64,000 nucleotides of DNA from Nannocystis bainbridge. Its GTDB lineage: Bacteria; Myxococcota_A; Polyangia; Nannocystales; Nannocystaceae. This document shows positions 1,798 to 64,000 of the stretch, piece by piece; within the stretch, counting starts at the first letter, position 1, and every line of letters starts with the position of its first letter. Position numbers and translations under genes: made by a program. The stretch lies in contig NZ_JAQNDL010000003.1 in NCBI RefSeq assembly GCF_028368995.1, forward strand, positions 2,272,001 to 2,336,000. The letters run 5' to 3'. The notes under the pieces are model-generated. The model had not been told where the DNA came from. It saw only the letters and a list, made by a program, of their open reading frames with translations, and searched no databases.

Positions 1798-4764
1798 ATG
1801 TCAGCAACGACCGGCCCGCGCGACGGCCTCCTGCTGCTCGCGGCGTTCGCCTCGGGCGCGGCGGCCCTCGCCTACGAGATGCTGTGGACGCGCATGTTGG
1901 CGCTGTCGCTCGGCAGCGAGACCGTCGGCGTGCTCGCGGCGCTGGCCGGCTACTTCGCCGGGCTCGCGCTCGGGGCCGGGCTGCTGCACGACCGGACCCA
2001 CCGCGCCGCCGACCCGGTGCGCCTGTTCGTCCTGCTCGAGCTGGTCGCCGCCGGCTTCGCCGTGGCCTCGCCGCACCTCCTGCAGTGGCTCGCGCGCGTG
2101 CTGCCGGGCTGGCTCGGGCCCGTCGCTGCCGCCGGTGGGGCCGCGGCGCTGGCCGCCTCCACGGCGGTCGCCGCCGCCGTGCTCGCCCTCGGCGCCGCCC
2201 CGCTCGGCGCCTCGCTGGCGGCCCTGGTCGAGGCCCGCCGCCGCACCTGTCCCTCGGACCAGGACGGCCGCGGCCTCGGCCGGATCTACGGCGCCAACAC
2301 CCTCGGCGCCGCCCTCGCCGCCCTCGTCAGCGTCCACCTGGTGTTCCCCGCCCTCGGCTACGGCCTCGGCGCCGCCCTCGCCGCCCTCGCCGGCGCCGGC
2401 GCTGCCCTCGCCGCCCGGGCCTGGGGCGCCCGCGCTTCAGGACATGTCCCGCCGAGCATGTCCCCCGCGACAGTTTTGAAAGGACATGTCCCCGGAGACA
2501 TGTCCTCCGCGCCAGCCTCGCCGGCCGCCGAGATTGCGCCCGCCTCTCGGGACGCTGGCGCCGACGTCAATCCTCGAGTCACCGACGCGGGCGCCGACGT
2601 CGGTTCTCGCGTCACCATCGACGTCCCACCTGCCGCTCGAGACACCTCCGCGTCTCGCTTCACCTCGCCCTCCTCTCGGCACACCACCCCCGCCCCGCCT
2701 TCCGTCATCGACGCCTCGCGCGACCCCGACCCCGACCTGCTGCGCGAGCCGTGGCTGCTCGGCCTCGTGTCCTTCGGGACAGGTCTGACCGGCATCGGCC
2801 TCCAGGTCGTCGGCATCCGGGTGCTCGGCCAGCACCTCGAGAACACCATCTACACCTTCGCCCACATCCTCGCCGCCTACCTGCTGGCGACCGGCCTCGG
2901 CGCGCTCGTCTACCAGCGCTTCGCCGCGCGGGCGGTCGCCGGCCGGCCCGGCGGCGTCATCGCGGCGCTGCTGTGGCTGCTCGGCATCCTCGTCGTCCCG
3001 GCGGCCATGGTCCTCGCGCAGGGGCCCGCGCTGTTGCAGGCGCTCGCGCCCGAGGCGGCCGGGCTCGCGCGCGCCGGCCTGGCCGAGCTCGCGGTCGCGG
3101 CCCTGGTGTTCGCGCCGACCGCCGTGGTCCTCGGCGCCCTGCTCAGCCACGTCATCGGCCTGGTCGCGGCCACCGGTCGCGGCGTCGGCCGGACCTACGC
3201 CTACAACGCGCTCGGCTGCGCCGCCGCCCCGTTCGTGTTCGGCCTCGTCGCCATCCCGCGGCTCGGCTACGCCGACGCCTTTTACGCCGTGCTCTACGCC
3301 TACCTGGCGCTGTTCGCCGTGTTCGGGTGGTTCCGCCGGTTCTCGCCGATCATGCTCATCGGCGGCGTCCTCGCCGGCGTGGCCTTCACCGCCGCCGGCC
3401 CGCGCTCGCTGGCCCTCGTCAGCGACAGCGACGGGTGGGTCCGCCGCGAAGAGCGCCAGACCCTGCACGGCCTCGTCGCCGTCAGCGAGCGCCCCGGCCC
3501 CGGCGGCGCCCCGCTGCGCCGGCTGCAGATAGGCAAGCGCTTCCGCATGGGCGGCGCCGCCGGCTTCGGCGAGCAGCGCATGGGCCAGCTCTGTTCGCTC
3601 CTGTCCCATGCGTCAGGTCCCGAAGGACCGATCGCAAAGGCCCTGTACCTCGGCCTGGGTACCGGCTCGACCATGGGCGGCGCGCTGGCGGTCCCGCACG
3701 CCGCGGCCGAGGGCGTCGAGCTGGTGCCGGAGATCGTCGAGCTGCTGCCGCACTTCGCCGACATCAACCACGACCTGGCAAAGCGCCCCGAAGCCACCCT
3801 GCTCGCCGCCGACGCCCGCCGCTACCTCGCCGCCGCGCCCGACCGCTACGACCTGATCGTCGCCGACCTGTTCCACCCCGGCCAGGCCGGCGCCAGCAGC
3901 CTGTTCGCGCGCGAGCACTTCGCCGCCGCCGCCAGCCACCTGCGCCCCGGCGGCCTGATGTGCCAGTGGCTGCCGCTCTACCAGCTCGACGAGGCCGACG
4001 TGCGCACGATCGTCCGCACCTTCCTCGACGTGTTCCCCGAGTCCTACGGCTTCCTGGGCATCTACAACGCCCAGAACCCCGCGCTCGCGCTCGTCGGCCG
4101 CGCCCCCGACCCGGCCGCGGCCCAGCTCCACCTCGACGTCGCGCGCCTGCAGGCCGACACCGCCAAGCTGCAGAACATCGTCGACCCGCGCGACCTGCTG
4201 GCCTCCTACGTGATGGGCCCCGGCGAGCTGACCGCGTGGGCCGGCGACGGCCCGCGCAACACCGACCTCGCGCCCGAGATCGCGTTCCAGGCCGCGCGCG
4301 TGGCCTACCGCGACGACCGCAGCCTCGGCGCCCACAACCTCGGGGCGGTGCTCCAGCGCGCCGCCCCGGCCCCGGCCGCCCTCCTGACAGGCAGCGGCGC
4401 CGAGGCCCTCGCCGCCGCCAGCGCGCCGTTCACCGCCGCCGCCCGCCACTACCTGACCGGCGAGATCGCCCGCGGCGACCTCGCTGACCTTTCGGGGATG
4501 TCCTGGGAGACAGCCGAGAACTTCGTCCGCGCCTATGAGGCCGACCCCGAGTTCGCGCCCGCCCGCGGCGCCCTCTACACCATCGCGCGCAAGAACTCGG
4601 CCCTGGCCGCGAAGCTCCTCCCGCGCATGCTGGCCCGCACCCCCGACGAACCCCGCGTCTACGAGGCCTTTTTAAATCACCTGCGCCTGACCGGCGATCA
4701 GACCGCCTACCAGCAATTGCGCGACGAGGCCGCCGCCAAGTTCCCGGACGCCACCCTGCCGTGA
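1798..4764 (+). CDS. Fused membrane domain / spermidine synthase-like SAM-binding protein
   Basis: SGAAALAYEMLWTR and YGANTLGA membrane repeats; LYLGLGTG, VELVPEI, DARRYL, YDLIVADLFHP, QWLPLYQ. Has a low-complexity insert of about 100 aa at roughly 2431-2730. Confidence 0.85.
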   Translation: MSATTGPRDGLLLLAAFASGAAALAYEMLWTRMLALSLGSETVGVLAALAGYFAGLALGAGLLHDRTHRAADPVRLFVLLELVAAGFAVASPHLLQWLARVLPGWLGPVAAAGGAAALAASTAVAAAVLALGAAPLGASLAALVEARRRTCPSDQDGRGLGRIYGANTLGAALAALVSVHLVFPALGYGLGAALAALAGAGAALAARAWGARASGHVPPSMSPATVLKGHVPGDMSSAPASPAAEIAPASRDAGADVNPRVTDAGADVGSRVTIDVPPAARDTSASRFTSPSSRHTTPAPPSVIDASRDPDPDLLREPWLLGLVSFGTGLTGIGLQVVGIRVLGQHLENTIYTFAHILAAYLLATGLGALVYQRFAARAVAGRPGGVIAALLWLLGILVVPAAMVLAQGPALLQALAPEAAGLARAGLAELAVAALVFAPTAVVLGALLSHVIGLVAATGRGVGRTYAYNALGCAAAPFVFGLVAIPRLGYADAFYAVLYAYLALFAVFGWFRRFSPIMLIGGVLAGVAFTAAGPRSLALVSDSDGWVRREERQTLHGLVAVSERPGPGGAPLRRLQIGKRFRMGGAAGFGEQRMGQLCSLLSHASGPEGPIAKALYLGLGTGSTMGGALAVPHAAAEGVELVPEIVELLPHFADINHDLAKRPEATLLAADARRYLAAAPDRYDLIVADLFHPGQAGASSLFAREHFAAAASHLRPGGLMCQWLPLYQLDEADVRTIVRTFLDVFPESYGFLGIYNAQNPALALVGRAPDPAAAQLHLDVARLQADTAKLQNIVDPRDLLASYVMGPGELTAWAGDGPRNTDLAPEIAFQAARVAYRDDRSLGAHNLGAVLQRAAPAPAALLTGSGAEALAAASAPFTAAARHYLTGEIARGDLADLSGMSWETAENFVRAYEADPEFAPARGALYTIARKNSALAAKLLPRMLARTPDEPRVYEAFLNHLRLTGDQTAYQQLRDEAAAKFPDATLP
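2431..2514. repeat. Six head-to-tail 14-bp TGTC-N6-GACA-like units, in frame within the CDS
   Basis: Units cgcgcttcaggaca, tgtcccgccgagca, tgtcccccgcgaca, gttttgaaaggaca, tgtccccggagaca, tgtcctccgcgcca. Confidence 0.85.
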
Positions 4765-4771
4765 ATGCCGC

Positions 4772-4978
4772 GAGCTGTCCCGAGGGACAGCTTGTCACCG
4801 ACCTGCGCGCGGCTGTCTCGAGGGACAGCCACTCGCCGCAAGCGAGCTGTCCACGGGACATGTTGTCGCCACCCTGCCCGGAGCTGTCCCGAGGGACATA
4901 TTATTGCCGACCTGTACGCGGCTGTCTCGAGGGACAGCCCTTCGCCGACCTTCGCGCGGCTGTCCCTCGGGACAGCCG
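4772..4978. repeat. Intergenic array of six GCTGTC-N6-GACA palindromes, period about 38 bp
   Basis: TGTC starts at 4776, 4814, 4848 (N5 variant), 4885, 4923, 4961; the linkers are related to each other (cgacctgcgcgcg, cgacctgtacgcg, cgaccttcgcgcg). Confidence 0.9.
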
Positions 4979-8655: not shown

Positions 8656-8802
8656 GGCACCCTGTGTATCGCAAGGCGAGGTCCGCTGTCCGCAGCGACG
8701 TGAATGGCGACCGCGCGCCGGCTCACGGCTCGCCCGTGAGCTGTCTCTTCGACCATGTCATCGGAACTCCCAGACCGGGCCGGAGATCCACTAAGCTGCG
8801 TC

Positions 8803-9696
8803 ATGCCTCGCCTTCGACCGCAGATCGGGCTCGCGATCGCGCTTGTGTGCCTGCCGCAGCCGGCTCACGCCGACAGCTTCCGGCCGCCCGAGGACAAGCT
8901 TCCGGTCGAGGTCACCATCGCCGTCGAAAACCTCGACGCGCACCCGGAGTACATCTTCGTGCTGTGGCCCGACGCCTGTCTGCGCAACGACGGCAACATG
9001 GGCACCTACACCGTGCTCAATTGGCAGGAGGACGACGGCCGGCCCGACCTCTTCGAGGAGGGCTGCTCCCGCCAGCGACTGTTCGCCTACCCGCGCGACA
9101 CCTACTCCGAGGACGAGGGCGTCCTGTCCGAGAACGCCCGCCAGCAGCTCGGCGACGACCCGCCGAGCGACCCGCGGGTGCTCGTGCAGACGATCACCGC
9201 CGAGGAGATATGGTGGGTGCCCGACGAGGTCGATGTCTCTGGCATCGAGGACGTGTACCGCGTCGGCATCGACAGCACCGGCCTCTCGCTGACCCCGACC
9301 CGCGTCCGCTTCAGGTTCTCCGGCGGAGCTATCTTCGAGCGCCTCTTTTACAAGGGCCGACGCCCACGGCTGCCGCGTGTCTCCGACACCCCGCCCAAGC
9401 CGCCGCCGGCGCCCGCCGCTCCCGCCGCCGAGCCCGCCCCCGCAGCCGCCGACACGCCGGCCCCCGACGCGAGCGCTACCCCCGACACGAAGGCCGAACC
9501 ACCGACCCCCGACGCGAAGGCCGAACCACCGGCCCCCGTGATCACGCCTGCGCCTCCCGCCTCGGAGCCGGAGCCGGCTACCTCCGAGGAGATCTCGCAA
9601 CGACCCTGGCTGCCTCCGCCGCTGATGTACGGCGGCGCCTGCCTGCTGGTCGCGATCGCGGCCGGGCTCGCGCTGCGGCGCCGCCCCGGCGCGTGA
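8803..9696 (+). CDS. Hypothetical exported protein with Pro/Ala linker and C-terminal membrane anchor
   Basis: Signal-like N-terminus ending AHA-D, Pro-rich stalk, hydrophobic tail followed by RRR. Confidence 0.7.
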   Translation: MPRLRPQIGLAIALVCLPQPAHADSFRPPEDKLPVEVTIAVENLDAHPEYIFVLWPDACLRNDGNMGTYTVLNWQEDDGRPDLFEEGCSRQRLFAYPRDTYSEDEGVLSENARQQLGDDPPSDPRVLVQTITAEEIWWVPDEVDVSGIEDVYRVGIDSTGLSLTPTRVRFRFSGGAIFERLFYKGRRPRLPRVSDTPPKPPPAPAAPAAEPAPAAADTPAPDASATPDTKAEPPTPDAKAEPPAPVITPAPPASEPEPATSEEISQRPWLPPPLMYGGACLLVAIAAGLALRRRPGA

Positions 9697-9729
9697 CCTT
9701 CGAGACATGTCCTTCGGGACAGCTTATTT

Positions 9730-11838: not shown

Positions 11839-13479
<1,641 letters not shown>

Positions 13480-19549: not shown

Positions 19550-21109
19550 TCAGCCCTCCTTCGCGGCGGCGGCGGCGTCCGCCGGCTTGTCCGTGGCTGC
19601 GGGCTTCTTCGGCTTCGGCGCCGGCTTGGCCCCCGCGTCGGCCCCGGCGGCGTCCGGCTTGGCGGCGGCCGGCTTCTTCGCGGCTGTCCCTTCGGACTTG
19701 ACCGAAGCGCCAGGTCCCTTCGGACCTGTCCCTTCGGGCGGGCCCGCGGCCGGCGCGGCCGGCTTCGAAAGGATCTCCGCGTGCGGCTTGACCAGCCACT
19801 GGTTCGCCACCTCGCGCACCCGCTGCGGCGTGACCGCGCGCAGCCGCTGCAGGTAGGTGTTGGCGTAGCCGGGGTCGCGGGCGTAGTGGTTGAAGTACTG
19901 CAGCCGCTCGACGCGGCCCATCACGTCCTCGAGGCCCCACACGAACGCCGACTCGGTGCCGATGACGACGCGCTTGAGCTCGGCGTCGCTGACCGGCTCG
20001 CGGAGGACCCGCTCGAGCTCGCGGCGGATCGTCAGCTCGGCCTTGACCGGGTCCTGGCCCGGCTTGAGGTCGACGATCACGTGGAACGTGCCGGAGTGCC
20101 CGGCGCCGCCCTGGTAGGCCGACACCGACTGGGCGCTCTTGTCCTCGAGCACCAGCGCCTTGTAGAGGCGACCCCAGCCGGGCGAGCCGAGCACGTCGGC
20201 CAGCACCTCGAGCTCGATGTCACCGCCGCCGAGGCGGGGCGGGCTGTGCCACGCGTAGTGGATGCGGTACAGGCGGGCGAACGGGTCGTCGAGCTCGCGG
20301 CGGACCGTCTGCGTCAGCGCCGGCGCGGCGACCTTCGGGTGGGCCGGCACCGGCAGCGTCGGGAAGCTGCCGAACCACTTCTGGACCAGCGCCTTGGCCT
20401 GCTCCGGCTCGAAGTCGCCGGCGATCGTCAGGGTCGCGTTGCTCGGCACGTACCACTTGCGGAAGAAGCCCTGCACGTCGGCGACGCTGGCGGCCTCGAG
20501 GTCCTCGTGGCGACCGATCGTCAGATAGCGGTACGGGTGGCCTTCGGGGTACAGCGCCTCGGCGACGGCGAACCGCTCGCGGCCGTAGGGCACGTTGTCG
20601 TAGCGCTGGCGCCGCTCGTTGCGGACCACGTCGCGCTGGTTGGCCAGGCTCTTCTCGTCGAGCAGGTCGAGCATGTAGCCCATGCGATCCGACTCGAGCC
20701 ACAGCGCCGTCTCGAGCTGGTGGCTGGGCACCACCTCGAAGTAATTGGTGCGATCCGAATTGGTGGTACCGTTGATTCCGGTGCCGCCGATCTCCTGCAG
20801 GATCTTGAAGTGCACGTCGTTGCCGATGTGCTTGGCGCCCTGGAACATCATGTGTTCGAACAGGTGGGCAAAGCCGCTCTTGCCGGGCGTCTCGTCGCCG
20901 CTGCCGACGTGGTACCAGAGATTGGCGACCACCAGCGGCGCAGCGGAGTCGCGGTGCAAGATCACCTCGAGGCCGTTGGGCAGGACGTAGCGTTCATAGG
21001 GGATGTCGACCCCTGGCGAATCCGCGGCGGGCTTCGCAGGCGCCGCCTGGACGGGGGCCGCAGCCGCAAGAAGCAGCGCGAGCGGCAAGAGCAGGTGCCG
21101 TGTGGCCAT
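19550..21109 (-). CDS. M16 zinc peptidase, catalytic subunit
   Basis: LPNGLEVIL, WYHVGS, GFAHLFEHMMFQG (HXXEH), LWLESDRMG. Confidence 0.95.
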   Translation of the reverse strand: MATRHLLLPLALLLAAAAPVQAAPAKPAADSPGVDIPYERYVLPNGLEVILHRDSAAPLVVANLWYHVGSGDETPGKSGFAHLFEHMMFQGAKHIGNDVHFKILQEIGGTGINGTTNSDRTNYFEVVPSHQLETALWLESDRMGYMLDLLDEKSLANQRDVVRNERRQRYDNVPYGRERFAVAEALYPEGHPYRYLTIGRHEDLEAASVADVQGFFRKWYVPSNATLTIAGDFEPEQAKALVQKWFGSFPTLPVPAHPKVAAPALTQTVRRELDDPFARLYRIHYAWHSPPRLGGGDIELEVLADVLGSPGWGRLYKALVLEDKSAQSVSAYQGGAGHSGTFHVIVDLKPGQDPVKAELTIRRELERVLREPVSDAELKRVVIGTESAFVWGLEDVMGRVERLQYFNHYARDPGYANTYLQRLRAVTPQRVREVANQWLVKPHAEILSKPAAPAAGPPEGTGPKGPGASVKSEGTAAKKPAAAKPDAAGADAGAKPAPKPKKPAATDKPADAAAAAKEG

Positions 21110-26199: not shown

Positions 26200-27006
26200 T
26201 CAGCCCGGATGCACCCCGCGTCCGCCGGCGCGCCTGACCTTTTCGACCTGTGTCTTCGGACCTGTCTCTTGGATCATGTCGCTCAGCGGACACGCGCCGA
26301 GCCTGGCCAGGTCGGCCGCGGCCGCCTCGGCCCAGCCGCTGTTGGCGAGCGGCGACGCCGGGCTCGGATGAAGGATCTTGCCGATCTTGGCCCGCGCGCC
26401 GACGACCTTCTGCGCCCGCTTCTCGGCCCACGCGCCGATGCCGACGACCCATGTCGGCTCGAGCAGCTCGACCAGGCGCAGCAGGTGGCGGTCGCACGCG
26501 GCCTCGAGCGGCGCGCGCTCGCCCGCGGGCAGCTTGTCGGGCGTGAAGTTCTTGCCGCTCGCCTCGATGAAGGTCAGCGGGCAGTAATTGGCGACGTAAT
26601 GGCGGTTGAAGAACCGCTCCGCGGCGCCCCATCGCTGGGCCACCGCGCCCCACAGGCGCGAGCCGCTGACCTCCGCGCGCGTGCACGCGAACCCTTGCAC
26701 CGGCCGCTCCGGGTGCTCGTGAGCGGGCCGCGACACCGGCGCCTCGATCTTCAAGAAGTCGCGCACCGCCTTGACCTCGCCGAACGGCACCCCCGTCTGC
26801 GTCATCCCGAACGGCCCCGGGTTCATGCCGAGGAACACGATGTCCTTGCGCCCGCGCCCGTACGCGGCGATGTACGCGGCGTGAGGCGCCCACGCGTAGT
26901 CGAGCGGGTGATACACGTGGGTGATCGGCTCGGCGAACGAGAGGCTGCGCACCTCGTCCGCGAGCCTTCTGGCTGCGGCCTGCAGCTCGGCGGCGATCGT
27001 CGTCAT
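26200..27006 (-). CDS. SMUG1-family single-strand-selective uracil-DNA glycosylase
   Basis: GMNPGPFGMTQTGVPFG, EVSGSRLW, NYCPL, HPSPASP. Confidence 0.9.
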   Translation of the reverse strand: MTTIAAELQAAARRLADEVRSLSFAEPITHVYHPLDYAWAPHAAYIAAYGRGRKDIVFLGMNPGPFGMTQTGVPFGEVKAVRDFLKIEAPVSRPAHEHPERPVQGFACTRAEVSGSRLWGAVAQRWGAAERFFNRHYVANYCPLTFIEASGKNFTPDKLPAGERAPLEAACDRHLLRLVELLEPTWVVGIGAWAEKRAQKVVGARAKIGKILHPSPASPLANSGWAEAAAADLARLGACPLSDMIQETGPKTQVEKVRRAGGRGVHPG

Positions 27007-35342: not shown

Positions 35343-35554
35343 ACGTTGTCGCCAGCGCGGGCGCCTCGTCTCGCACCGCGCGCGCCTGCCGAACCGACGA
35401 AGATCTCGGCATCGCGGCAGTGACTCGCGACGCAGCGACGATCTGGCCGTCGCCGCTCGGCCGCCCTGCGCGAGCCGATTAAACGCGAACGGCGGCGATC
35501 GCTCGCCGCCGCGGTCGCTCGCTGTCACGAGCGACCTGTCCCTTCGGACAGGCC

Positions 35555-40627: not shown

Positions 40628-42730
40628 ATGTCCTCCGCGCCAGCTGGTCCCGAGGACATGGCGAAGACGCCAGGTCCGAAAGGTCCTGTCGCTACGGACA
40701 TGCCCTCCGGGACAGGCGGGATGACGCCGCACGGACGTGACGACCTGTCCACCGGGACAGACGGCATGAGCTCGCGCGCCCGCGAGGCCGCCTCGCCCGA
40801 CCTGTCCTTCGGGACACCCGGCTCCCTGTCCCCGCGGGTCGCCGTGCTCGGCGTCCTCGCCCTGATCGCCCTCGTTCACGTGCCGCTGCTCGGCTTTCAG
40901 TTCGTCTACGACGACGGCTGGACCCTGGTCGCCAACGGGTTCTTGCGCGCGCCGGCCGACCTCGCGCTGCTGTTCTCGCCCGAGGCGATCGCCCGCCACG
41001 TCCCTGACGCCTTCCGGCCCGGCCTCGTCGTCTTCGACCTCCTCGGCTACCAGCTCATCGGCCTGTCCTCCGGCCTGCACCACGCCCTCTCGATCGCCCT
41101 CCACCTGGGCGTCTGCGCCGTCCTGGTCCGCTGGCTGCGCGTGCTCGGGGCCCCCTTCGACCTGGCCCTCGGGACAGCCGCGCTGTTCGGCCTGCTGGCG
41201 ATCCACGCCGAGGCCGTCGCCGTCGTCTCGTACCGCGAGGACCTCCTGGCCGCCCTGCTCGGCCTCGCCGCCGCCCTCGCCGCCTCGCGCCGCCGCCTCG
41301 CCCTCGCCGCCTTCCTGTCTCTCGGGGCATGTTCGATGAAGCTCAGCGCCGGCGCGATCCCGGCGCTGTGGCTGCTCGCCGAGGGCCTCTCGCCGTGGCG
41401 CCCGCGCCCGCCGGTGACCCACCTGCTGCGCGGCGCCCTCGCCCTCGCCCTCGGCGTCGCCGCCGTGATCGCCTACACCTTCGCCCTCTACGGCGCCCTC
41501 GACCCGTACGGCGCAGGCAACCTGCGCGTCTTCAGCCACCGCGTCGGCCTCGGCCCGGTGCTCGCCGCCTCGCTGCCGATCCACCTCGGCTACTTGCAGC
41601 AGATCCTGGTCCCGCTCGGCCTCTCGCCCGAATACACCGACCGCGCCGCCGGCCTCCGCGAGCCCGCGGTGCTGCTGGCCGGCGCCGCCCTGCTCGCGCT
41701 CGCCGGCTACGGCCTCGCCTGCGCCCGCCGTCGCCCGCTGGTGGCCCTGGCGATCCTCGGCGCCTTCGCCCTCGCCCTGCCGACCAGCAACCTGTTCCCG
41801 ATGCCCAACATGCGGGCCGACCGCTTCATGTACCTGCCGAGCGTGCCGGTCTGCCTCGGCCTGGCCGCGCTCTTGCTGACCGCCGGTCGCTGGCTGTCTC
41901 GACATGTCCCCGAGGACATGCGACTGTTCGCCCGCGTCGCCCCGCTGGCCGCCGTGGTGGTCGTCCAGGGCTCGGTGCGCGTGGCCACGGCCGCGGTCTA
42001 CCGCGACAACTCGCACCTGTGGGGCGTGGCCCACGTGCGCGCCCCCGACTCGGCCCGCGCCCTCGCGGTGCTCGGCGAGCTGGTGCTGCGCAACGTCCCT
42101 GCCGACGCCCCGCGCGAGGACAAGGCCCTGGCGTTCGCCCGCGCCGAGGCCCACTGCCGCAACGCCGAGCGCCACGACCCCCGCTACGAGCTGCCGCAGC
42201 TGTGCTTCGCCCGCCTCGCCGCCGCCCGCGAGGACTGGCCCGAGGCCTACCGCCGCTACCAGGCGGCCCTCGCCGTCAGCCCCGACCGCAACGCGGGGAT
42301 CTTCGCCGGCCTCGCCGAGGTGAGCCTCGACCTGCCCGCGACTTCCGAGACGACACGCACGGACCTGGCCCGCCGTCACCTCGCCGAGGGCCTGGCGAGC
42401 TACCCGTACAGCCCGGAGCTGCACGCGACCGCGGGGCGGATCTTCCATCGCCTCGCCGACCCGGAGCAGGCAACGCTCCATTATCAACGGTCCCTCGCGC
42501 TGGCCCCCGAGCGACCCGAAGCCCTGCTCGCGAACATCGAGCTGCTCCTCGACCTCGGACGTCCGACCGCCGCGACCGAGCTCCTGCTCCACGAAAAAAC
42601 CGCCTGGCTCGCCGCCGATCCCGACGATCGGACCGCGCTTGTCGCGCGGCACCGCGACGCCTTGCGGCTGTTCGAACCTTCATCGATACTCTCAGCCGAC
42701 CCCGTCGGAGTCCTCGCCCATGAGCCGTAA
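40628..42730 (+). CDS. TMTC-like GT-C glycosyltransferase with C-terminal TPRs (true start may be about 40766)
   Basis: FVYDD, FRP, HAEAVAVVSYREDL, ADRFMYLPS, then TPR-like helices. Confidence 0.8.
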   Translation: MSSAPAGPEDMAKTPGPKGPVATDMPSGTGGMTPHGRDDLSTGTDGMSSRAREAASPDLSFGTPGSLSPRVAVLGVLALIALVHVPLLGFQFVYDDGWTLVANGFLRAPADLALLFSPEAIARHVPDAFRPGLVVFDLLGYQLIGLSSGLHHALSIALHLGVCAVLVRWLRVLGAPFDLALGTAALFGLLAIHAEAVAVVSYREDLLAALLGLAAALAASRRRLALAAFLSLGACSMKLSAGAIPALWLLAEGLSPWRPRPPVTHLLRGALALALGVAAVIAYTFALYGALDPYGAGNLRVFSHRVGLGPVLAASLPIHLGYLQQILVPLGLSPEYTDRAAGLREPAVLLAGAALLALAGYGLACARRRPLVALAILGAFALALPTSNLFPMPNMRADRFMYLPSVPVCLGLAALLLTAGRWLSRHVPEDMRLFARVAPLAAVVVVQGSVRVATAAVYRDNSHLWGVAHVRAPDSARALAVLGELVLRNVPADAPREDKALAFARAEAHCRNAERHDPRYELPQLCFARLAAAREDWPEAYRRYQAALAVSPDRNAGIFAGLAEVSLDLPATSETTRTDLARRHLAEGLASYPYSPELHATAGRIFHRLADPEQATLHYQRSLALAPERPEALLANIELLLDLGRPTAATELLLHEKTAWLAADPDDRTALVARHRDALRLFEPSSILSADPVGVLAHEP

Positions 42731-48039: not shown

Positions 48040-48890
48040 CGCGGCGCAGCAAGGGCCCCCTCGACCCCGAGGCCCTGCTGCGACTGGGCACCAGCGAGCA
48101 CTACGAAGACCCCGAGCTCTACGACTTCGAGTACCGGGACCACCGCCACGACGTCGCCTGGTACCGCGGCCTCGCCCGCGACCGCGGCCCGCGCCAGCGG
48201 GTCGTCGAGCTCGGCGCCGGCACCGGACGGATCAGCCTCCCGCTGTGTCACGACGGCCACGGCGTCGTCGCCGTCGACCGCATGCCCAGCATGCTCGACC
48301 ACCTGCGGCGCAAGGCCGCCGACCTCCCGAGCGACGTCGCCGCCCGCCTCGAACCTGTCCTCGGGGACATCACCGCGTTGCCGCTGCCCGACGCCAGCGC
48401 CGACCTCGTGTTCGCCCCCTTCAACGTGCTCATGCACCTCTATTCGTGGGAGGACCTGCTGCGCTGCTTCCGCGAGGCCGCGCGCGTGCTCGTGCCCGGC
48501 GGGCGGTTCGCCCTCGACGTCCTCCTGCCCGACCTCGAGTGGCTGACCTGGGACCCCGAGGAGCGCCACAGCGTCACCCACTTCACCCACCCGCGCACCG
48601 GCGCGCCGATGGTCTACTCGACCAATCACCGCTACGACCCGCACACCCAGGTGTGCCACGTCCGGATCTTCTACGACGACGCCCCCAAGCGCCCGCGCGC
48701 CTTCAAGCCGCCGCCCGAGCCGGTCCAGGTCGTCCACCTCGCCCACCGCCAGATCTTCCCCGAAGAGCTGCGCCACCTCGTCGCCGCCGCCGGCCTCGAG
48801 CTCGACAGCCTCGGCGGCAACTTCCGCGGCACCCGCCTCGTCCCCGGCGTCGACTCGCAGTGCGTCCTGTGTACCAAGAGACATGTCTGA
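48036..48890 (+). CDS. Class I SAM-dependent methyltransferase
   Basis: VELGAGTGR, AVD, GDITALP, LVPGGRF; GTG overlaps the pcnB stop. Confidence 0.9.
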   Translation: MTRRSKGPLDPEALLRLGTSEHYEDPELYDFEYRDHRHDVAWYRGLARDRGPRQRVVELGAGTGRISLPLCHDGHGVVAVDRMPSMLDHLRRKAADLPSDVAARLEPVLGDITALPLPDASADLVFAPFNVLMHLYSWEDLLRCFREAARVLVPGGRFALDVLLPDLEWLTWDPEERHSVTHFTHPRTGAPMVYSTNHRYDPHTQVCHVRIFYDDAPKRPRAFKPPPEPVQVVHLAHRQIFPEELRHLVAAAGLELDSLGGNFRGTRLVPGVDSQCVLCTKRHV

Positions 48891-49077
48891 AACGACATGC
48901 TCTTCGGGCCATCTCACTCGCTCGCGGCGCCCGTGAGCTCCAGGCTCGAGCTCCGTCCTCGCTCGCGCTCTCGGGCTCTCGGCTGCTGGCGCGCCGCCCG
49001 CCGAGCCTCGACTCGCTTTACGCGCCGGCCGATCGCTCTGGACCCTCCGCGCCTGCGCCCTCCGCGTCTGTGAGCCC

Positions 49078-50998: not shown

Positions 50999-51176
50999 GG
51001 TCTCAAGAGACATGTCCTTCGAGACATGTCTCTCGAACCATTTTCGAAACTGTCGCACTGTCCCGACACATGCGCGGCGCGCAGGCAGCCGTCGTCACCG
51101 CGGTCCCTGCTCTCTCCGCGCCTCGTTTAAAACCTGCCTCAAGGGGCATGTCCATCCAGACATGCCCCTTCGAACA
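50999..51176. repeat. Two phased 14-bp TG..CA arrays between convergent genes
   Basis: Three units at 50999-51040 and three at 51135-51176, each including one exact TGTC-N6-GACA. Confidence 0.85.
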
Positions 51177-51181
51177 TGCTT

Positions 51182-53683
51182 CTAGAGCGGCTTCGGCCCC
51201 GGGGCCCCGTCGAGCGCGTCGAGCAGCGAATCCCACTCCGCGTCCTCTGCTCCTGCCGCCGCCGGCGGTTCGACGCCCGGTCCTGGCGCTGCCGGTGCGG
51301 CCGCGGACACCACGGGCGGCGCCACGCTCGGCGCCTGCGCCACCGGCGGGGACAGCTTTCCTCCCGGCGGCATGAGCGGCGGCGCCACCAAGGGAGCGGC
51401 GGGGAAAGCCGGCGGCACCAGCGACCCGCCTGAAGCCGCCAGCGGCGCGCTGGCAGCCGAAGGCCGAGATCCCGGCAACGGCGCCCCGGCAGCGGGCCTC
51501 GGCGGCAGCAGCGGCGCCCCCGGAACCACCGGCACGGGCGGGGCCATCGACGCCCCCGCGAGCGGCGGCGCAGCGGGCCTCGACGCCGGCAACGTCGGCC
51601 CGCTCGCAGCCGGCGGGCTCTTCACCGGGACGGGCGGCAGCCCCAGCGGAGGCCGCCCGGCCGGGCTCCCGCCCACCGGCAGCCCCGCGACCGCCGGCGG
51701 CTTCGCCAGCGGCACCGAGAACGCCGGCGGCTTCACCCCTGCCGCGGCGACCGGCCCGGACGTCTCGGGCCGGCCGGCGATCGGCCCCGACTGCGCCGGC
51801 GCCCCGAGATGCCCGAACAACGCCCCCGCCGAAGGCGCTCCCGCCTTCGAGTCACTCGCGGCGCCCCTGTCCCGAGGGACATCCGCCCCGGCGACACCAG
51901 CCGTCAATCCGGCCCTGTCCCGAGGGACATCCGCCCCGGACAAACTACCCGTCAATCCGGCCCTGTCCCCAAGGACATCCGCCCCAGCGACACCAGCCGT
52001 CAATCCGGCCCTGTCCCCAAGGACATCCGGCCCAGCGACACCAGCCGCCGAACCGCCCCTGTCCCCAAGGACATCCGCCCCAGCGACACCAGCCGCCGAA
52101 CCGCCCCTGTCCCCAAGGACATCTGCCCCAGCGACACTCGCGTCCGGCCGCGCCTCGCCGACCCTGGAACCTGCCCCTTCGACCCTGTCCCCGAGGACAG
52201 CCACACTCGAACCAGCCGGAGCCGCCGCACGCCCCACGACCGTTTCGGCGCCGCCCTGCGGCTCACGAAGCGCCTCGCCGACCCCGCCCGCCCGCGCCAC
52301 CGGACCCCCGAGGCTCGCCGCCGGCGCCTCCACCCGCGCCGTCACACTCGTCTTCCCCGACCTGTCCGAAGAGACAGACCCGAGCTCCGGCTTGCCCGCC
52401 TGCCGCGTCGCGCTGCGCGGCGGCGTGCTCGTCACTCGCGCCGTCCCTCGCCGCTCGGCCTTCGCCGCGCGCCTGGCCGCCCGCCGCTCCTCCCGGCGGA
52501 CGTTTCGCTTCCCGCGCGGCTGCTCCGCCTCGCGCCCGTCCGGCCGCTCCGCCTCGTCCTCCGCCGCGCCGACCGGCAGCGCCAGCATCACCCCGCCCGC
52601 GACCGCCGGCTCGCCCCGCGACGGCGCCGCGACAGCCGCCTCACCGGGCTCGATCGGCCGCGGCGCGCTCGCGACCTTCGCCGCCGCCTGTCCATTCGGA
52701 CCTGCCCCCGAAGACATGTCCTTCGCGCCATCCGAGCGCCTCGCGGCCTGTCCCTTCAGACCTGCCCCGGAGGACATGTCCTTCACGACATCCTTGCGCT
52801 CGCCCGCCCGCGCCTCGAGCTTGCGGGCCCGCTTCTCGCTCGCCTTGACCGCCGGCCGCAGCATCCGCCGCGCCCGCTCGACCAGCGCCTCCGCCAGCCT
52901 GTCCGGCCCGGCCTCGAGCCCCGCCTCGGCCCCGCGCAGGGCCGACAGCGCCGGCTCCGAGGCCCCCGCGCGTTGCTCGAGCAGCGCCCGCGTCGCCAGC
53001 ACCCGCGGCGTCGCCCCCAGCGCCGCCTGGGCCGTGTCGAGCAGCGCCCGCACCTCGTCCGCGCGCGGCTTGCCGGCCAGCAGCTGCGCCGCGGCCAGGT
53101 GCAGCTGATCCCACGGCCCGAGCGCCTGGCGCTTCGCCTGCGCCTGCAGCAGGTCGCGCGCCTGCTCCGGCACGTCGGCGATCAGCAGCGCGTGCGCCTG
53201 CGCCGACACGATCCCCGCCGGCGGGTCGGCCATCGTCCCGGCCAGCCGCGCCGCCTCCGTCAGCGCTTTGGCCGACGCCCGCCCCTCGCCGCGCACCAGG
53301 TGCAGCCGGCCCTCCTGCATCGCCGTCCACGCGAACGGAGCGAACCACCGCACCCGCCGGCGCTCGCGCAGCGCGCCGAGCAGCCCTGGCGCCGTGCTCG
53401 GCGTCGCCGCCATCACCGCCCGCTCGAGCGGCCCGAGCAGCCCTTGCACGAACACCGGGAACAGCGCGAACCACAGCGCCGCCCCCGCCAGCAGCCCCCA
53501 GAACACCGGCCCGCGCGGCGCGAAGATCAGCCCCCCCGCGATGATCGCCATCGGCACGTAGATCCGCGCCGCCGCCGACGCGAGCGGCCGCTTCGAGCGG
53601 AGCCACGACGTGGCGGGCAGAGGAGCCCGCGCGGGCTCGGGCGGGGCGGCAGAGGTCGGGGCAAGATCGCTCACGGAGGCCAA
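51182..53683 (-). CDS. Hypothetical membrane protein with helical-repeat region and long low-complexity tail
   Basis: Two TM segments, Ala-rich helices, 16-aa repeats (GADVLGDRAG...), Pro-rich end. Confidence 0.65.
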   Translation of the reverse strand: MASVSDLAPTSAAPPEPARAPLPATSWLRSKRPLASAAARIYVPMAIIAGGLIFAPRGPVFWGLLAGAALWFALFPVFVQGLLGPLERAVMAATPSTAPGLLGALRERRRVRWFAPFAWTAMQEGRLHLVRGEGRASAKALTEAARLAGTMADPPAGIVSAQAHALLIADVPEQARDLLQAQAKRQALGPWDQLHLAAAQLLAGKPRADEVRALLDTAQAALGATPRVLATRALLEQRAGASEPALSALRGAEAGLEAGPDRLAEALVERARRMLRPAVKASEKRARKLEARAGERKDVVKDMSSGAGLKGQAARRSDGAKDMSSGAGPNGQAAAKVASAPRPIEPGEAAVAAPSRGEPAVAGGVMLALPVGAAEDEAERPDGREAEQPRGKRNVRREERRAARRAAKAERRGTARVTSTPPRSATRQAGKPELGSVSSDRSGKTSVTARVEAPAASLGGPVARAGGVGEALREPQGGAETVVGRAAAPAGSSVAVLGDRVEGAGSRVGEARPDASVAGADVLGDRGGSAAGVAGADVLGDRGGSAAGVAGPDVLGDRAGLTAGVAGADVLGDRAGLTGSLSGADVPRDRAGLTAGVAGADVPRDRGAASDSKAGAPSAGALFGHLGAPAQSGPIAGRPETSGPVAAAGVKPPAFSVPLAKPPAVAGLPVGGSPAGRPPLGLPPVPVKSPPAASGPTLPASRPAAPPLAGASMAPPVPVVPGAPLLPPRPAAGAPLPGSRPSAASAPLAASGGSLVPPAFPAAPLVAPPLMPPGGKLSPPVAQAPSVAPPVVSAAAPAAPGPGVEPPAAAGAEDAEWDSLLDALDGAPGPKPL
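51864..52137. repeat. Six 48-bp tandem repeats, each carrying an exact TGTC-N6-GACA
   Basis: Motif starts at 51868, 51916, 51964, 52012, 52060, 52108. Confidence 0.95.
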
Positions 53684-56488: not shown

Positions 56489-56585
56489 TGCGCCTTGGAA
56501 CATGTTCAATCGAACATGTCCAAAACGCCATGCCATCATTCCCAGCGCCGCGGGACATGTCCATTCAGACATGTCCCGCGCGCCA
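56489..56585. repeat. Phased 14-bp TG..CA array between convergent genes
   Basis: tgcgccttggaaca, tgttcaatcgaaca, tgtccaaaacgcca, tgccatcattccca, one 13-bp unit, tgtccattcagaca, tgtcccgcgcgcca. Confidence 0.85.
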
Positions 56586-58363: not shown

Positions 58364-58369
58364 TTTTAC

Positions 58370-58439
58370 CGATCTCAGGGACATGCTCTAAAAACCATGC
58401 TCGTTAGCACATGTCCATGTGAACATGTCCTCGAGGACA
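58370..58439. repeat. Phased 14-bp array upstream of the JmjC gene
   Basis: cgatctcagggaca, tgctctaaaaacca, tgctcgttagcaca, tgtccatgtgaaca, tgtcctcgaggaca. Confidence 0.85.
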
Positions 58440-60591: not shown

Positions 60592-62730
60592 GTGTCTGCC
60601 GCGCCCCGGACCCTCGCCGTCGCAGCCGTCCTCCTCGTCGGCGACCTCGTCGCCGGACCGGCCCGCGCCGACAACCTGCACATCGACGTCCAGGCGAACC
60701 CCGAGCGCAACTTCATCCCGGTGCAGGAGCTCTCCTACGAGGCGATCGTCGCCGGGGTCGACGGCTACAAGGTCGACCTGCGCCTGCGCATCGCGCTCCA
60801 CAACGCCAGCAAGCGCCGCCAGGACGCGGTCCTCAGCCTCGCCTTGCCCCGCGACGCCGAGCTCGTCGGCCTCGCCGTGGCGCGCGACGGCACCTGGAGC
60901 CCCGGTCGTCCTGCCGGCGTCGCCGTCGAGCCGGCCCACCGCGCCTCCGGCACCGTCTTCGCCCGCGCCCTCGCGCCTGCCGTCGCCGGCGACCTGCCGG
61001 CCGCCGAGGTCGTCGTCTTCAACCTCGACCCCGAGACCAGCATTCAGCTCGAGCTGCAGCTCAAGGCCCCGCCGCGGCTGCGGGCCGACCGCTGGGAGCT
61101 CGAGCTGCCGGGCCGCGGCGACGACCGCTGGGGCCTCGCGCCCGAGCGCCGCGTCATCGTCCAGGGCAGCCGCCCTGGCGAGACCGCCCGCTTCTGGCTC
61201 GACGACCGCGCCAGCGACGGCGCCGCCGTGCTCGTCTCGCACCCCGAGGAGCGGTCCGTCGTCTCCTGGCCTCATAAACATGTCTCGAAGGACAGGAGCA
61301 TCCTCGACGGCCACCTCGAGCTCGTGCCCGACCCGACCCCTCCGGGCGGCAAGGCCAGGAGCGGCCGCTTCCGCGCCTACCTGCGCCTCGGCGCCGCCCC
61401 GCCGCCGCGGCCCGACCACGTCGTCGTCGTGCTCGACCGCTCGCGCAGCACCGCCCCCGACCTCCACCGCGACGCCTTCGCCGCGATCGCCGGCCTGTTC
61501 GACGAGCTGCCGCCGAGCCTCACCTTCGACGCCATCAGCTTCGCCCGCACCGCCCGGCCCCTGCTCGAAGGCGGCGAGTTCCCTGGCGTGCGCGACCGCG
61601 GCGCCCGCGACCGCGTCGCCGCGGCCCTCGACGCCGGCGCCCGCGAACAGGGCACCGACCTCGCCGCCGCCCTCGCCCTCGCCGGCCGCCGGATCGCCGC
61701 TCGCGGGGCCCGCCGCCCGCTCGTCGTCGTCATCACCGACGGCATGCTGCCCGCCAGCATCGGCGCGCGCCAGATCGGGGATGTCTTTTCGGACAGCCTC
61801 GCCAACTCCGCCCGCCCCGAGCTGCTCTTCATCGTCGACGAGCCGATGCTGCTGCGCGGCGGCATCACCCCGCAGCACCCGATCGCCAGCGTCGCCACCG
61901 CGCTCGGGGCCCGCATCAGCCTCGAGTCGCTGGCCCAGCACGCCCGCCGCAGCGGCGGCGAACCGCCCGAGGGCCTCACCGAAGCCCTGCTGGCCGCCCC
62001 CGCCGTCCTCTCCGACCTCGAGCTGTCGCTGCCGCGCCGCGCCAGCCTCGACGAGCCGGCCCCTGGCGCCCTCGTCGCCGGCAACGTGCTCGTCGTCCGC
62101 GGCCGCTACACCGGCGCCCCGCCGAGCGTCGGCGTGCGCGGCAAGCTGGCCGGCGCGCGCACCAGCCGGACCTTGCGCGCCGTCACCACGCCGCCGCCGC
62201 CCGCCGCCCTGGTCGCCTCGTTCGGCGTCGCCGACCTCGAGCGCGCCGCCGCCGACGGCTTCACGCGCCCGCCGTGGTTCGGCCTCAATCAACAGCGCGT
62301 GGCCCGGCTCGGCATCACCTGGGCCGGCCGCGGCAACGGCGAAGAGCGCGGCTTCCTCGACGAGAAGATCTTCCGCAACTACCTCGGGATCCGCGTGTTC
62401 CCCCGCGCCCGCGCCTGTTTCAATAAGGGGCTCATGCGCGACCAGCAGCTCGGCGGCAAGGTCGTGTTCGAGATCGAGGTCGGCAAGGGCGAGGTGATGT
62501 TCGCCAGGGTCGACACCACCGGCCTCGCGCGCCGCGAGCCCGGCTTCGAGGCCTGCCTGCTCGAGGCCGCCTGGGCGCTCGAGATCCCCGCCGGCCGCCT
62601 CGACGACCAGATCTACCGCCTCCGCTACCCCGTGGTCTTCAACCCGCCGTCGGGCGGCCGCCCGGCCATGGAAGACGACCCGCTCGGCCCGGGCACCGTC
62701 GAGCTCCTGCTCGGCCTGCCGAACCGCTGA
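60592..62730 (+). CDS. Exported VIT-like / vWA-domain protein with TonB-C/AgmX-like C-terminal domain
   Basis: Signal peptide; MIDAS-like LDRSRS, GTDL, ITDG; RACF...GKVVFEIEV...CL...YPVVF. Confidence 0.7.
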   Translation: MSAAPRTLAVAAVLLVGDLVAGPARADNLHIDVQANPERNFIPVQELSYEAIVAGVDGYKVDLRLRIALHNASKRRQDAVLSLALPRDAELVGLAVARDGTWSPGRPAGVAVEPAHRASGTVFARALAPAVAGDLPAAEVVVFNLDPETSIQLELQLKAPPRLRADRWELELPGRGDDRWGLAPERRVIVQGSRPGETARFWLDDRASDGAAVLVSHPEERSVVSWPHKHVSKDRSILDGHLELVPDPTPPGGKARSGRFRAYLRLGAAPPPRPDHVVVVLDRSRSTAPDLHRDAFAAIAGLFDELPPSLTFDAISFARTARPLLEGGEFPGVRDRGARDRVAAALDAGAREQGTDLAAALALAGRRIAARGARRPLVVVITDGMLPASIGARQIGDVFSDSLANSARPELLFIVDEPMLLRGGITPQHPIASVATALGARISLESLAQHARRSGGEPPEGLTEALLAAPAVLSDLELSLPRRASLDEPAPGALVAGNVLVVRGRYTGAPPSVGVRGKLAGARTSRTLRAVTTPPPPAALVASFGVADLERAAADGFTRPPWFGLNQQRVARLGITWAGRGNGEERGFLDEKIFRNYLGIRVFPRARACFNKGLMRDQQLGGKVVFEIEVGKGEVMFARVDTTGLARREPGFEACLLEAAWALEIPAGRLDDQIYRLRYPVVFNPPSGGRPAMEDDPLGPGTVELLLGLPNR

Positions 62731-62738
62731 TCACGGGC

Positions 62739-62822
62739 TGTCCCGGAGAGCATGCCCTCCGGGACATGCTCTTCACGACATGACCGAACAGACATGCCTC
62801 GAAAGGCATGTCCATAAGCGCA
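62739..62822. repeat. Six-unit phased 14-bp TG-N10-CA array filling a convergent intergenic gap
   Basis: tgtcccggagagca, tgccctccgggaca, tgctcttcacgaca, tgaccgaacagaca, tgcctcgaaaggca, tgtccataagcgca. Confidence 0.92.
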
Positions 62823-64000
62823 TCACTCGCCCGCCCGCACCCCGAGCGCGCGCTCGAGGTCGCGGATCCGGATCTCCTGCAGCTCTTGCTCGATCCGCCC
62901 GCGCTCCTCGTGCAGCGAGTAGTCCGTCTCCGTCGCCGCCAGCCCCTCGATCATGCGCTCGATCGTGCGGGTCAGCCCGCCCGGCCCGAAGAACTGCCCG
63001 CCCTCCGCCTCCAGCCCCTCCGCCGTCTCGCGCAGGTTCACCGCCATCATCCCCAGGCTGTCCGCCGCCGCCAGCGTCATCTCTCTGCGCCGCCGCTGCT
63101 GTGCCGCCTCGACCTTGGCGATCTTCGCGTCGAGCCGCAGCCACTCCTTGAGCCGCGCCCTGTACCCCGGCGACTGCGGCACCTTCTCGAGCGCCCCCTG
63201 GGTCGCCGACGGGAACCGCCAGTACGGCTGGTTGCGCGACGGGTCCCAGCGCTCGCCCTCGTCCCCGGCGCGGCCCATGAAGATCCCCAGCGGCAGCGCG
63301 TGGTCCAGCATCAGCGTCGCCGCCGCGCCCGCGCTCGTCACGATCGGCCCGACCTGGGCCACCCGCGGCTGCCATTTGCGCGCCGATCCGCGCTCGACCT
63401 GCGGAGCAAACTTCGGGTCGGTCGAGATCGTCAGCGTCGAGCCGACCAGCGCCACATGGACATCGCGCCACGCCGGCACCGTCACCACGTGCCCGCCCCC
63501 CTTGCCGCGCTTGACCTTGAGCCCGGATCGACCGAGCGACGAGCCCGGGATCTTCGCCATCGTCACCGCGACCAGCGTCGCCGCCGTCGTCGCGCTCTTG
63601 AACCCGAGCGCGAGGTTGAACCCGAGCTCCGCCTTGTTGCCCGCGCGGGCCAGCGCCCGCGCGTCCGCGGTCGTCAGCGCGAAGCTCACCGCCCCGTCGA
63701 GCAGCTCGAGCGCCGTCCGCGGCTCGCCGCCGATCTCCCGCTGCAGCGTCGCGAACAGCGCGTCGACGCTCTGGCCGTCGGCCCGCAGCAGCACGTCGAG
63801 CGCCGCCAGCCCCTCGTTCACGTCGAGGTTGCCGCTGGTCCCCAGCAGCACCCGCTCGCTCGCCGCCGTGATCGCCAGCGGCGGCGTCGTCCCCGGCTGC
63901 AGCGCCTTCCGCAGCAGCGCCGTCTCCGGCGCCCGCGTCCGCGCCGTCCCCGTGATCGCCTCGGGCCCCAGCGACAGCCCCAGCGCGATCGGCCCCAGCG
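62823..64000 (-). CDS. Hypothetical protein (5' end outside the window)
   Basis: Open minus-strand frame with typical codon usage continuing past 63851 to the window end. Confidence 0.7.
   Translation of the reverse strand, partial: LGPIALGLSLGPEAITGTARTRAPETALLRKALQPGTTPPLAITAASERVLLGTSGNLDVNEGLAALDVLLRADGQSVDALFATLQREIGGEPRTALELLDGAVSFALTTADARALARAGNKAELGFNLALGFKSATTAATLVAVTMAKIPGSSLGRSGLKVKRGKGGGHVVTVPAWRDVHVALVGSTLTISTDPKFAPQVERGSARKWQPRVAQVGPIVTSAGAAATLMLDHALPLGIFMGRAGDEGERWDPSRNQPYWRFPSATQGALEKVPQSPGYRARLKEWLRLDAKIAKVEAAQQRRRREMTLAAADSLGMMAVNLRETAEGLEAEGGQFFGPGGLTRTIERMIEGLAATETDYSLHEERGRIEQELQEIRIRDLERALGVRAGE

Follow-up and report, generated by a model that had tools for sequence, protein, structure and literature searches.

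Exactly phased arrays of a 14-bp palindromic unit lie at gene ends in Nannocystis

The commonest recognisable gene-end feature in the genome of Nannocystis bainbridge is an array of short palindromic units that abut at an exact 14-bp period, and we tentatively read these arrays as protein-bound tiles acting as gene-end or transcription-unit boundary elements, an explanation that we regard as possible rather than probable. The element is restricted to the genus, and no published description of it was found in a full-text literature search, the coverage of which excludes subscription journals. It was noticed in a stretch of 64,000 nucleotides (G000:C2:2272001-2336000, hereafter the window, to which all positions without a contig prefix refer) of the N. 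bainbridge genome (G000; 11.05 Mb, 71% GC, 5 contigs), in which a reading made from the letters alone (the sequence-only reading) had claimed head-to-tail TG-N10-CA units with an exact period and variable cores. The period passed the autocorrelation test: within the window, CATG pairs number 20, 12 and 8 at spacings of 14, 28 and 42 bp vs 0-3 at other spacings, and genome-wide the peaks continue through 14, 28, 42, 56, 70 and 84 bp (3736, 2073, 1586, 751, 383 and 391 pairs, respectively), with 72 pairs at 13 bp and 79 at 16 bp. Across the whole genome, a 14-bp peak was absent for GATC, GTAC, TGCA, ACGT, AGCT, TCGA and CTAG.

Arrays were called from seed units matching at least 9 of 10 positions, with in-phase extension through units matching at least 7 of 10. 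This gave 6635 arrays, with 3847 single units (many of which must be background), 1365 pairs and 604, 186, 319 and 204 arrays of three, four, five and six units; larger arrays of 7, 8, 9, 11 and 12 units number 75, 28, 5, 1 and 1. The typical multi-unit array has 2-8 units, with a maximum of 12, and the called arrays together hold 12,769 units in 11 Mb, a density of ~1 unit per kb. Calling at a phase of 12, 13, 15 or 16 bp left the chains nearly empty (30-202 pairs, at most 6 triples). The mean unit score is 8.3-8.8 inside arrays and 3.9-4.4 at the next in-phase position (overall, a drop from 8.4 to 4.0), vs a background of 3.4; array edges are thus sharp, and weaker units are tolerated only inside arrays. 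The size distribution dips at four units (186, between 604 at three and 319 at five), in convergent and tandem gaps alike.

Alignment of the 3736 units that have CATG on both sides gave the consensus TG[T/C]CC-N4-GG[A/G]CA (TGYCC-N4-GGRCA), a 14-bp palindrome in which 10 positions are constrained and the core is free, the most frequent unit occurring only 14 times among the 3736. The 4-nt spacer is strict. TGTCC-N4-GGACA has 1987 copies genome-wide, against 8, 16, 5 and 3 copies with spacers of 2, 3, 5 and 6 nt; the degenerate unit is matched perfectly 2828 times in the genome vs 23-93 times with other spacers, and at 9 of the 10 positions 5902 times vs 879-2649. Because a good unit is missing on both flanks in just 47 of the 1771 GGRCATGYCC junctions, the unit is the basic element and the junction is not. 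Cores are enriched in TTC/GAA, CGA/TCG and GATC, and mutual information within units shows strong dependencies only among neighbouring core positions; symmetric position pairs are absent from the 30 highest-ranking pairs, and variation in one half of a unit is nearly independent of that in the other. Around the 989 isolated perfect units, the flanks are symmetric (R-S-[C/A] facing [G/T]-S-Y across the unit) and carry no tag, and flank positions 0 and 15 form 508 Watson-Crick pairs where 495 are expected, that is, without covariation. T occupies position 3 in 92% of isolated units vs 57% of units within arrays, and isolated units are therefore stricter than array units, as would be expected if neighbours aid each other's binding. 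Genome-wide, the perfect 6-bp palindromes ACATGT and GCATGC are under-represented at junctions, compared with ACATGC and GCATGT, at an odds ratio of 0.46; this pattern at RCATGY may reflect avoidance of palindromes or restriction sites, or an alternation of unit types.

Within the window, the arrays (to which no strand is assigned) largely follow this anatomy. The six abutting TG-N10-CA units at 62739..62822 are exactly as first described; in order they read TGTCCCGGAGAGCA TGCCCTCCGGGACA TGCTCTTCACGACA TGACCGAACAGACA TGCCTCGAAAGGCA TGTCCATAAGCGCA, with scores of 9, 10, 8, 8, 8 and 9 of 10. They fill a convergent ORF gap, starting 8 nt past the TGA stop (62728..62730, + strand) of ORF 60592-62730, which has a weak VWA_2 match, and 0 nt separate the end of the array from the stop codon of the convergent ORF beginning at 62823 (62823..62825, - strand; tca on the + strand). 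The convergent-gap array at 56489..56585 (97 nt) does have the seven units first counted, one of which is 13 nt long, giving four units, the short unit with its 1-nt phase slip and two further units. Five units at 58370..58439 were likewise found as described, in a tandem gap. This array reaches the putative ATG of ORF 57365-58384(-), which at 58382-58384 falls inside one of its CATG junctions; if that start is correct, the array departs from the 3'-end rule by adjoining a start and not a stop. Six units stand at 2431..2514, within a called ORF, the fourth with a degenerate left half. For the remaining arrays, each first read as three units, the existence of the array held and the count or quality shifted: the one read at 12284 has four units (12270..12325); those at 50999..51026 (two units), 51135..51176, 52689..52730 and 52749..52790 (three units each) have 2-3 good units apiece; and the three units at 26235..26276, with CCTG junctions, and the three at 48870..48911 are degenerate, CCTG accounting for part of the junctions of these two arrays. 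Beyond these, two units lie at 9694..9721, the first opening with the TGA stop of ORF 8755-9696 (offset -3), four with CCTG/CAGG junctions at 19685..19740, three at 40673..40714, and a lone unit at 35537..35550, with 4 nt between it and a stop codon; its position and arms are conserved in 5/5 other species.

Two tandem repeats in the window, at 51865-52137 (period 48, 5.7 copies) and 4769-4976 (period 38, 5.6 copies), embed one perfect unit in each copy (TGTCCCCAAGGACA and TGTCCCGAGGGACA, respectively) at a spacing other than 14. A further set of 96-bp coding tandem repeats at 15456-15942 is Cys/Asp/Gly-rich (CGDG...CDDGN) and looks like the Myxococcus-type cysteine-rich repeat.

The location of the arrays relative to genes was assessed with a crude ORF caller based on GC3 patterns (6668 genes, 78% coverage), and the gap classes given here thus contain errors. 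Arrays of at least 5 units fall in convergent (330), tandem (184) and divergent (14) gaps and within called ORFs (104); most of the array-bearing "divergent" gaps are long and probably contain missed genes. The claim that arrays fill gaps between convergent genes was borne out, since 393 of the 735 convergent (53%), 223 of the 1488 tandem (15%) and 20 of the 488 divergent gaps (4%) with a length of 40-300 bp hold an array of at least 2 units. Where tandem gaps measure 300-600 bp, the stop and the array are a median 21 bp apart, and the array and the next start 319 bp; in convergent gaps of the same length, the distance to a stop is at most 10 bp for 50% of arrays vs 7% under uniform placement. 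Arrays are tied to stop codons at any gap length. An array of at least 2 units starts between -20 and +40 at 1122 of the 6668 gene ends, most often at offsets of -3 (109), +2 (92) and +3 (64) from the stop codon, with a usual range of -17 to +10 nt; at offset -3, the first unit opens with the stop codon itself. Stop-codon usage at these ends is the same as in the genome. Arrays of at least 3 units are present at ~13% of gene ends. For tRNA genes, the ends of which are exact, an array of at least 2 units within 150 bp was found downstream of just 7 of 102 and upstream of 0 of 102, which counts against a boundary function.

A canonical terminator, a hairpin with a T-tract, occurs within 120 nt past 142 of the 5114 array-less gene ends (2.8%; antisense control 48, 0.9%) and past 10 of the 867 ends with an array of at least 3 units (antisense control 16), and none was found at the arrays of the window. 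Hairpin plus T-tract terminators are thus very rare in this genome and do not coexist with arrays. An exception is one conserved GC-rich hairpin, GGCGGCGATCGCTCGCCGCC, that has an A/T tract beside it; it lies at 35480-35520 and in the orthologues L061-L065, just beyond the unit at 35537-35550, and looks like a canonical terminator of the - strand gene; because this conserved hairpin and T-tract comes after it, the unit there is not itself the terminator. Location and the missing canonical terminators agree with the proposal of a transcription roadblock or bidirectional terminator made in the sequence-only reading, and two other observations sit badly with it, namely arrays in the middle of genes and arrays that start at or before the stop codon.

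Among the 819 arrays of at least 4 units, 164 lie within called ORFs, and 76 of these 164 are mid-ORF (relative position 0.15-0.85), most with a same-frame GC3 of 0.9-1.0 on both sides, such that about a tenth of the longer arrays are in frame within genes. The hosts include two Ser/Thr kinase genes, in which the array lies 3' of the kinase domain. Since a strong roadblock at the 76 mid-gene arrays should do harm, these arrays strain the roadblock reading; an array at or before the stop, judging by the known downstream footprint of RNA polymerase, would stall the enzyme ahead of the stop codon. Mid-gene and stop-overlapping arrays together argue against a tight roadblock. The 7-unit array in C1:21677-25309(-) is preserved unit for unit in 5/5 other species, and the array in C2:2021920-2024277(-) has 8 units in N. 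bainbridge vs 5 in four other species, exactly three units (42 nt, 14 codons) having been duplicated in tandem. From this duplication, it follows that the step of array change is the whole unit, and in coding DNA the unit triplet. Alignment of orthologous loci, proposed in the sequence-only reading to see whether arrays change by whole units and with polarity, thus showed whole-unit change, this 3-unit gain included, and polarity was not seen. The orthologue of C2:2021920-2024277 in G007 (L047) contains one 13-nt unit, after which the frame is lost; either this gene is frameshifted or the sequence contains an error.

Between species, the motif stops at the border of the genus. A two-unit pattern that occurs 114 times in N. 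bainbridge was found 3-61 times in 9 of the 10 other Nannocystis genomes, the sole pattern-less one being 64% complete, and 0 times outside the genus, both in 30 related genomes (14 further genera of the family, plus 16 genomes from other families) and in 400 other genomes of the phylum spanning 254 other genera. A scan for tiles with other arms in further genera of the family, comprising 5-mer gapped palindromes and 4-mer palindrome periodicity only, covered 100 kb each of G024 and G019 and ~41 kb each of G022 and G013 and returned none. Orthologous loci in Nannocystis pusilla, N. punicea, N. exedens and Nannocystis sp. have 90% protein identity. Arrays turn over fast between species. The convergent gap orthologous to that of the 62739 array holds 4-5 units with unrelated cores in one species (G003) vs six in N. 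bainbridge; the gap of the 58370 array holds arrays in 4/4 comparable species with differing cores and unit numbers; and the 56489 array is absent from the orthologous gap in 2/2 species (G003 and G001). For the single unit at 35537, the arms and the left flank are kept in six species with the cores CTTC, TTCA, CTCG(G), CTCG, CACG and CGTG, one species having a 15-nt unit. In these alignments, the arms are held across species while the cores are free, in accordance with the conserved ends and varying middles described at the outset. A search for closer strains by metagenome scan with a 21-mer at a gene end returned only 2 chance matches in unrelated DNA.

Within the genome, a match of at least 7 of 8 inner bases between neighbouring cores occurs in 3.5% of direct and 2.3% of inverted comparisons vs 1.7% of random pairs, and neighbours are thus barely more alike than random, as had been claimed from the variable cores; the excess is greatest at a 3-unit lag (5.4%). 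Of 6134 two-unit 28-mers, 6069 are distinct, and the 35 that are common to more than one array all fall in segmental or assembly duplicates, near-identical to each other and placed at contig ends. Distinct units number 6114 vs ~6700 after shuffling arms and cores, so that duplicate units are about as common as in shuffles. Because they share no sequence outside segmental duplicates, the arrays are not copied and pasted. Multi-unit sharing as a sign of mobility was accordingly rejected, the shared stretches being segmental or assembly duplicates at contig ends and not rRNA operons. The duplicates concerned (G000:C1:4,516,000-4,535,000, C2:3,023,000-3,032,000 and C5:711,000-717,000) are several kb long, near-identical, in direct and inverted orientation, and differ by single-base indels; rRNA was looked for there and none was found, and recent segmental duplication or an assembly artefact is their probable origin.

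These data bear on the idea that units are added stepwise and with polarity by an integrase-like or templated (reverse-transcriptase or transposase) process, which the sequence-only reading had offered as its second inference and which we consider highly improbable. The units do end in TG...CA, a feature that recalls the termini of DDE transposons, and species do differ by whole units. However, the cores are mutually unrelated, no target-site-duplication pattern was found in adjacent cores, multi-unit sequence is not shared between arrays, and the one resolved gain is the 42-nt tandem duplication of neighbouring units described above, in which polarity was not seen. The machinery was likewise absent where it was looked for: the RAYT (Y1/HUH transposase) profile PF01797 has 0 matches in N. 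bainbridge (90.5% complete) and matches in 6 of 14 control genomes, and a search for multi-copy IS ending in TGYCC was negative (44 candidate pairs vs 25 in the control). Nor do the arrays consist of related copies accompanied by a parent IS with the same terminal inverted repeats, as MITE or IS-derived elements do.

A second explanation that acts without host function is a selfish or driven element, either a REP/RPE-like repeat or an uptake-like motif spread by biased uptake or gene conversion, which would accumulate where it is tolerated, that is, in 3' untranslated stretches, convergent gaps and protein linkers. The density of ~1 unit per kb, the restriction to one genus, the near-exclusion from divergent promoter gaps and the fast turnover between species would all suit such an element, as would the in-frame intragenic copies, which have reported counterparts in REPs and Rickettsia RPEs (PMC3733652). 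Copy-and-paste has left no signal here, unit duplicates being no commoner than shuffled and RAYT and TGYCC-ended IS being absent from the searches above, and tolerance alone fails to explain the anchoring within 10 bp of stops in long gaps and the exact 14-bp phase. We judge a driven element unlikely.

Known repeats illustrate both sides of this comparison. The closest kind is the REP/BIME, and REPs are described as high-copy short palindromes at 3' ends and in convergent gaps that are rare in divergent gaps (PMC3733652), clustered, sometimes intragenic, and species- or genus-specific, with termination, mRNA stability and protein binding as proposed roles (PMC3733652; PMC2817692; bioRxiv 10.64898/2026.03.23.713779). 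The extragenic 3'-end location and the scarcity in divergent gaps are shared by the Nannocystis arrays; length, tag, family consensus and RAYT association are not. REPs are imperfect palindromes of 20-40 bp with a full-length family consensus, whereas the Nannocystis unit has 14 bp and a free 4-nt core; REPs alternate in orientation with linkers between them, whereas the units here abut linker-free at an exact 14-bp period; and REPs are often tied to a RAYT gene, whereas this genome has no RAYT match and each array is unique in sequence. The GTAG or CGTC tetranucleotide reported as the end tag of REPs (PMC3733652) is missing from the Nannocystis units, the flanks of which are symmetric. RPEs and intragenic REPs are reported as palindromic repeats that may lie in frame within protein-coding genes (PMC3733652). 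RPEs are recognisable mutual copies, unlike the intragenic Nannocystis arrays, which are 14-bp tiles conserved across the genus. The length of an RPE is ~100 bp or more.

Uptake sequences resemble the motif in other respects. The DUS of Neisseria and the USS of Pasteurellaceae occur at ~1 copy per kb, are specific to a genus or family, lie in coding and non-coding DNA, are enriched downstream of genes and are held constant without copy-and-paste. Compared by density and distribution only, they match the Nannocystis motif in density, genus restriction, presence in coding and non-coding DNA, enrichment downstream of genes and lack of copy-and-paste; unlike the Nannocystis units, they are not palindromic and do not form in-phase tandem arrays. 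To our knowledge, no DNA-uptake specificity has been described for Nannocystis.

A third explanation places the function in RNA or single-stranded DNA, with the arms of neighbouring units (GGRCATGYCC-N4-GGRCATGYCC) pairing into hairpins with 10-bp stems that would shield mRNA 3' ends or act as terminators lacking a U-tract, and with a hairpin-binding factor fixing the arms. The 62739 array folds far better than its shuffles on both strands (z -4.6 and -4.3; 0/200 shuffles as good), and this strong predicted fold is what any array of palindromes would show. Pairing-type associations run in the Watson-Crick direction, with odds ratios of 1.36-1.57 within a unit (1.7-1.95 from pair-count tables) and 1.18-1.92 between unit 1 and unit 3, and T-G slightly exceeds C-A on the sense strand (956 vs 836, z ~2.8). 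The post-stop placement resembles that of REPs in 3' UTRs, and array-less convergent gaps carry generic stems, 21% of them having a perfect stem of at least 9 bp vs 1% of shuffles and 3% of divergent gaps. Against this, most units would make poor hairpins: the Watson-Crick share at pairs 3-12, 4-11 and 5-10 is 48%, 63% and 57% of the 3736 units, and 631 of the 3736 have a C-A mismatch at pair 3-12. Paired positions show no mutual information, flanks no covariation and loops no asymmetry (in tandem gaps, CGAA 87 and TTCG 95, without strand bias), a role of structure only would leave the fixed arm sequence unexplained, and a search of the window against Rfam gave 0 matches at the gathering score. 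Because the halves are nearly independent and strand asymmetry is almost nil, a symmetric reader of double-stranded DNA fits the unit alignments better than an RNA hairpin, and we hold the hairpin explanation to be unlikely, slightly more so than a driven element; the weak but consistent pairing association and the T-G excess leave room for a hairpin component. Intrinsic terminators, too, lie downstream of stop codons, and the Nannocystis palindromes could serve both directions; intrinsic terminators are a stable GC-rich hairpin with a U-tract, whereas the arrays have no T-tract, fixed arms and poor pairing in most units.

The reading that we favour, protein-bound tiles at gene ends, would work as follows. 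The array would be a tiling of a two-fold-symmetric 14-bp site in which the neighbouring unit supplies the outer flank R-S-[C/A], and the reader would probably be a sequence-specific dimeric factor, found only in Nannocystis, that binds double-stranded DNA. Adjacent dimers would sit side by side every 14 bp, three units spanning 42 bp or about four helical turns, and such cooperative side-by-side binding would make weak units usable inside arrays and keep the phase exact. One array would serve both genes of a convergent pair, and its function would most likely be that of a bidirectional boundary element in a genome with almost no hairpin-plus-U terminators. Evolution would proceed in place, with the arms held, the cores drifting and whole units gained or lost by slippage. 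Tiling of this kind has precedents in MetJ metboxes, omega-repressor heptads and BldC repeats, in which abutting units bind one dimer each, neighbours are in contact and the number of units varies. The abutting units, exact register and independent half-sites of MetJ- and omega-type tiles have equivalents here; those systems, however, have few promoter-proximal operators per genome, whereas Nannocystis has thousands of 3'-end arrays that are nearly excluded from promoter gaps. The sequence-only reading had already proposed a protein that binds cooperatively as a filament, and the strict spacer, the nearly independent half-sites, the flanks without covariation, the tolerance of weaker units only within arrays and the sharp edges are consistent with it; our candidate searches did not yield the protein. 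A PadR-type reader was rejected, PF03551 having 0 matches in N. bainbridge and matches in all 14 controls; the operator motif of PadR-type regulators is ATGT-N8-ACAT. Eight proteins encoded beside arrays in short divergent gaps were also rejected, as they are AraC, NUDIX, BON or without a match, and none recurs. In its most specific form, namely a Nannocystis-only protein that polymerises on post-stop tiles, sets the ends of transcription units in both directions and thereby replaces hairpin terminators, the proposal is unlikely. The probability left over by the tiles, the driven element, the hairpins and stepwise addition goes to explanations outside these four.

How high-GC bacteria without hairpin-plus-U terminators end transcription is an open question, and the arrays offer a sharply defined and easily mutated signal at about half of the short convergent gaps and, with at least 3 units, at ~13% of gene ends. 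If the reading as a polymerising protein is true, a genome-wide protein and its DNA tiles would do the job done elsewhere by RNA hairpin terminators. If the arrays are functionless, they are still unusual, as a case in which a short palindrome stays constant across thousands of unique sites, in exact tiling and without copy-and-paste, and would bear on the origin of REP-like and uptake-like motifs.
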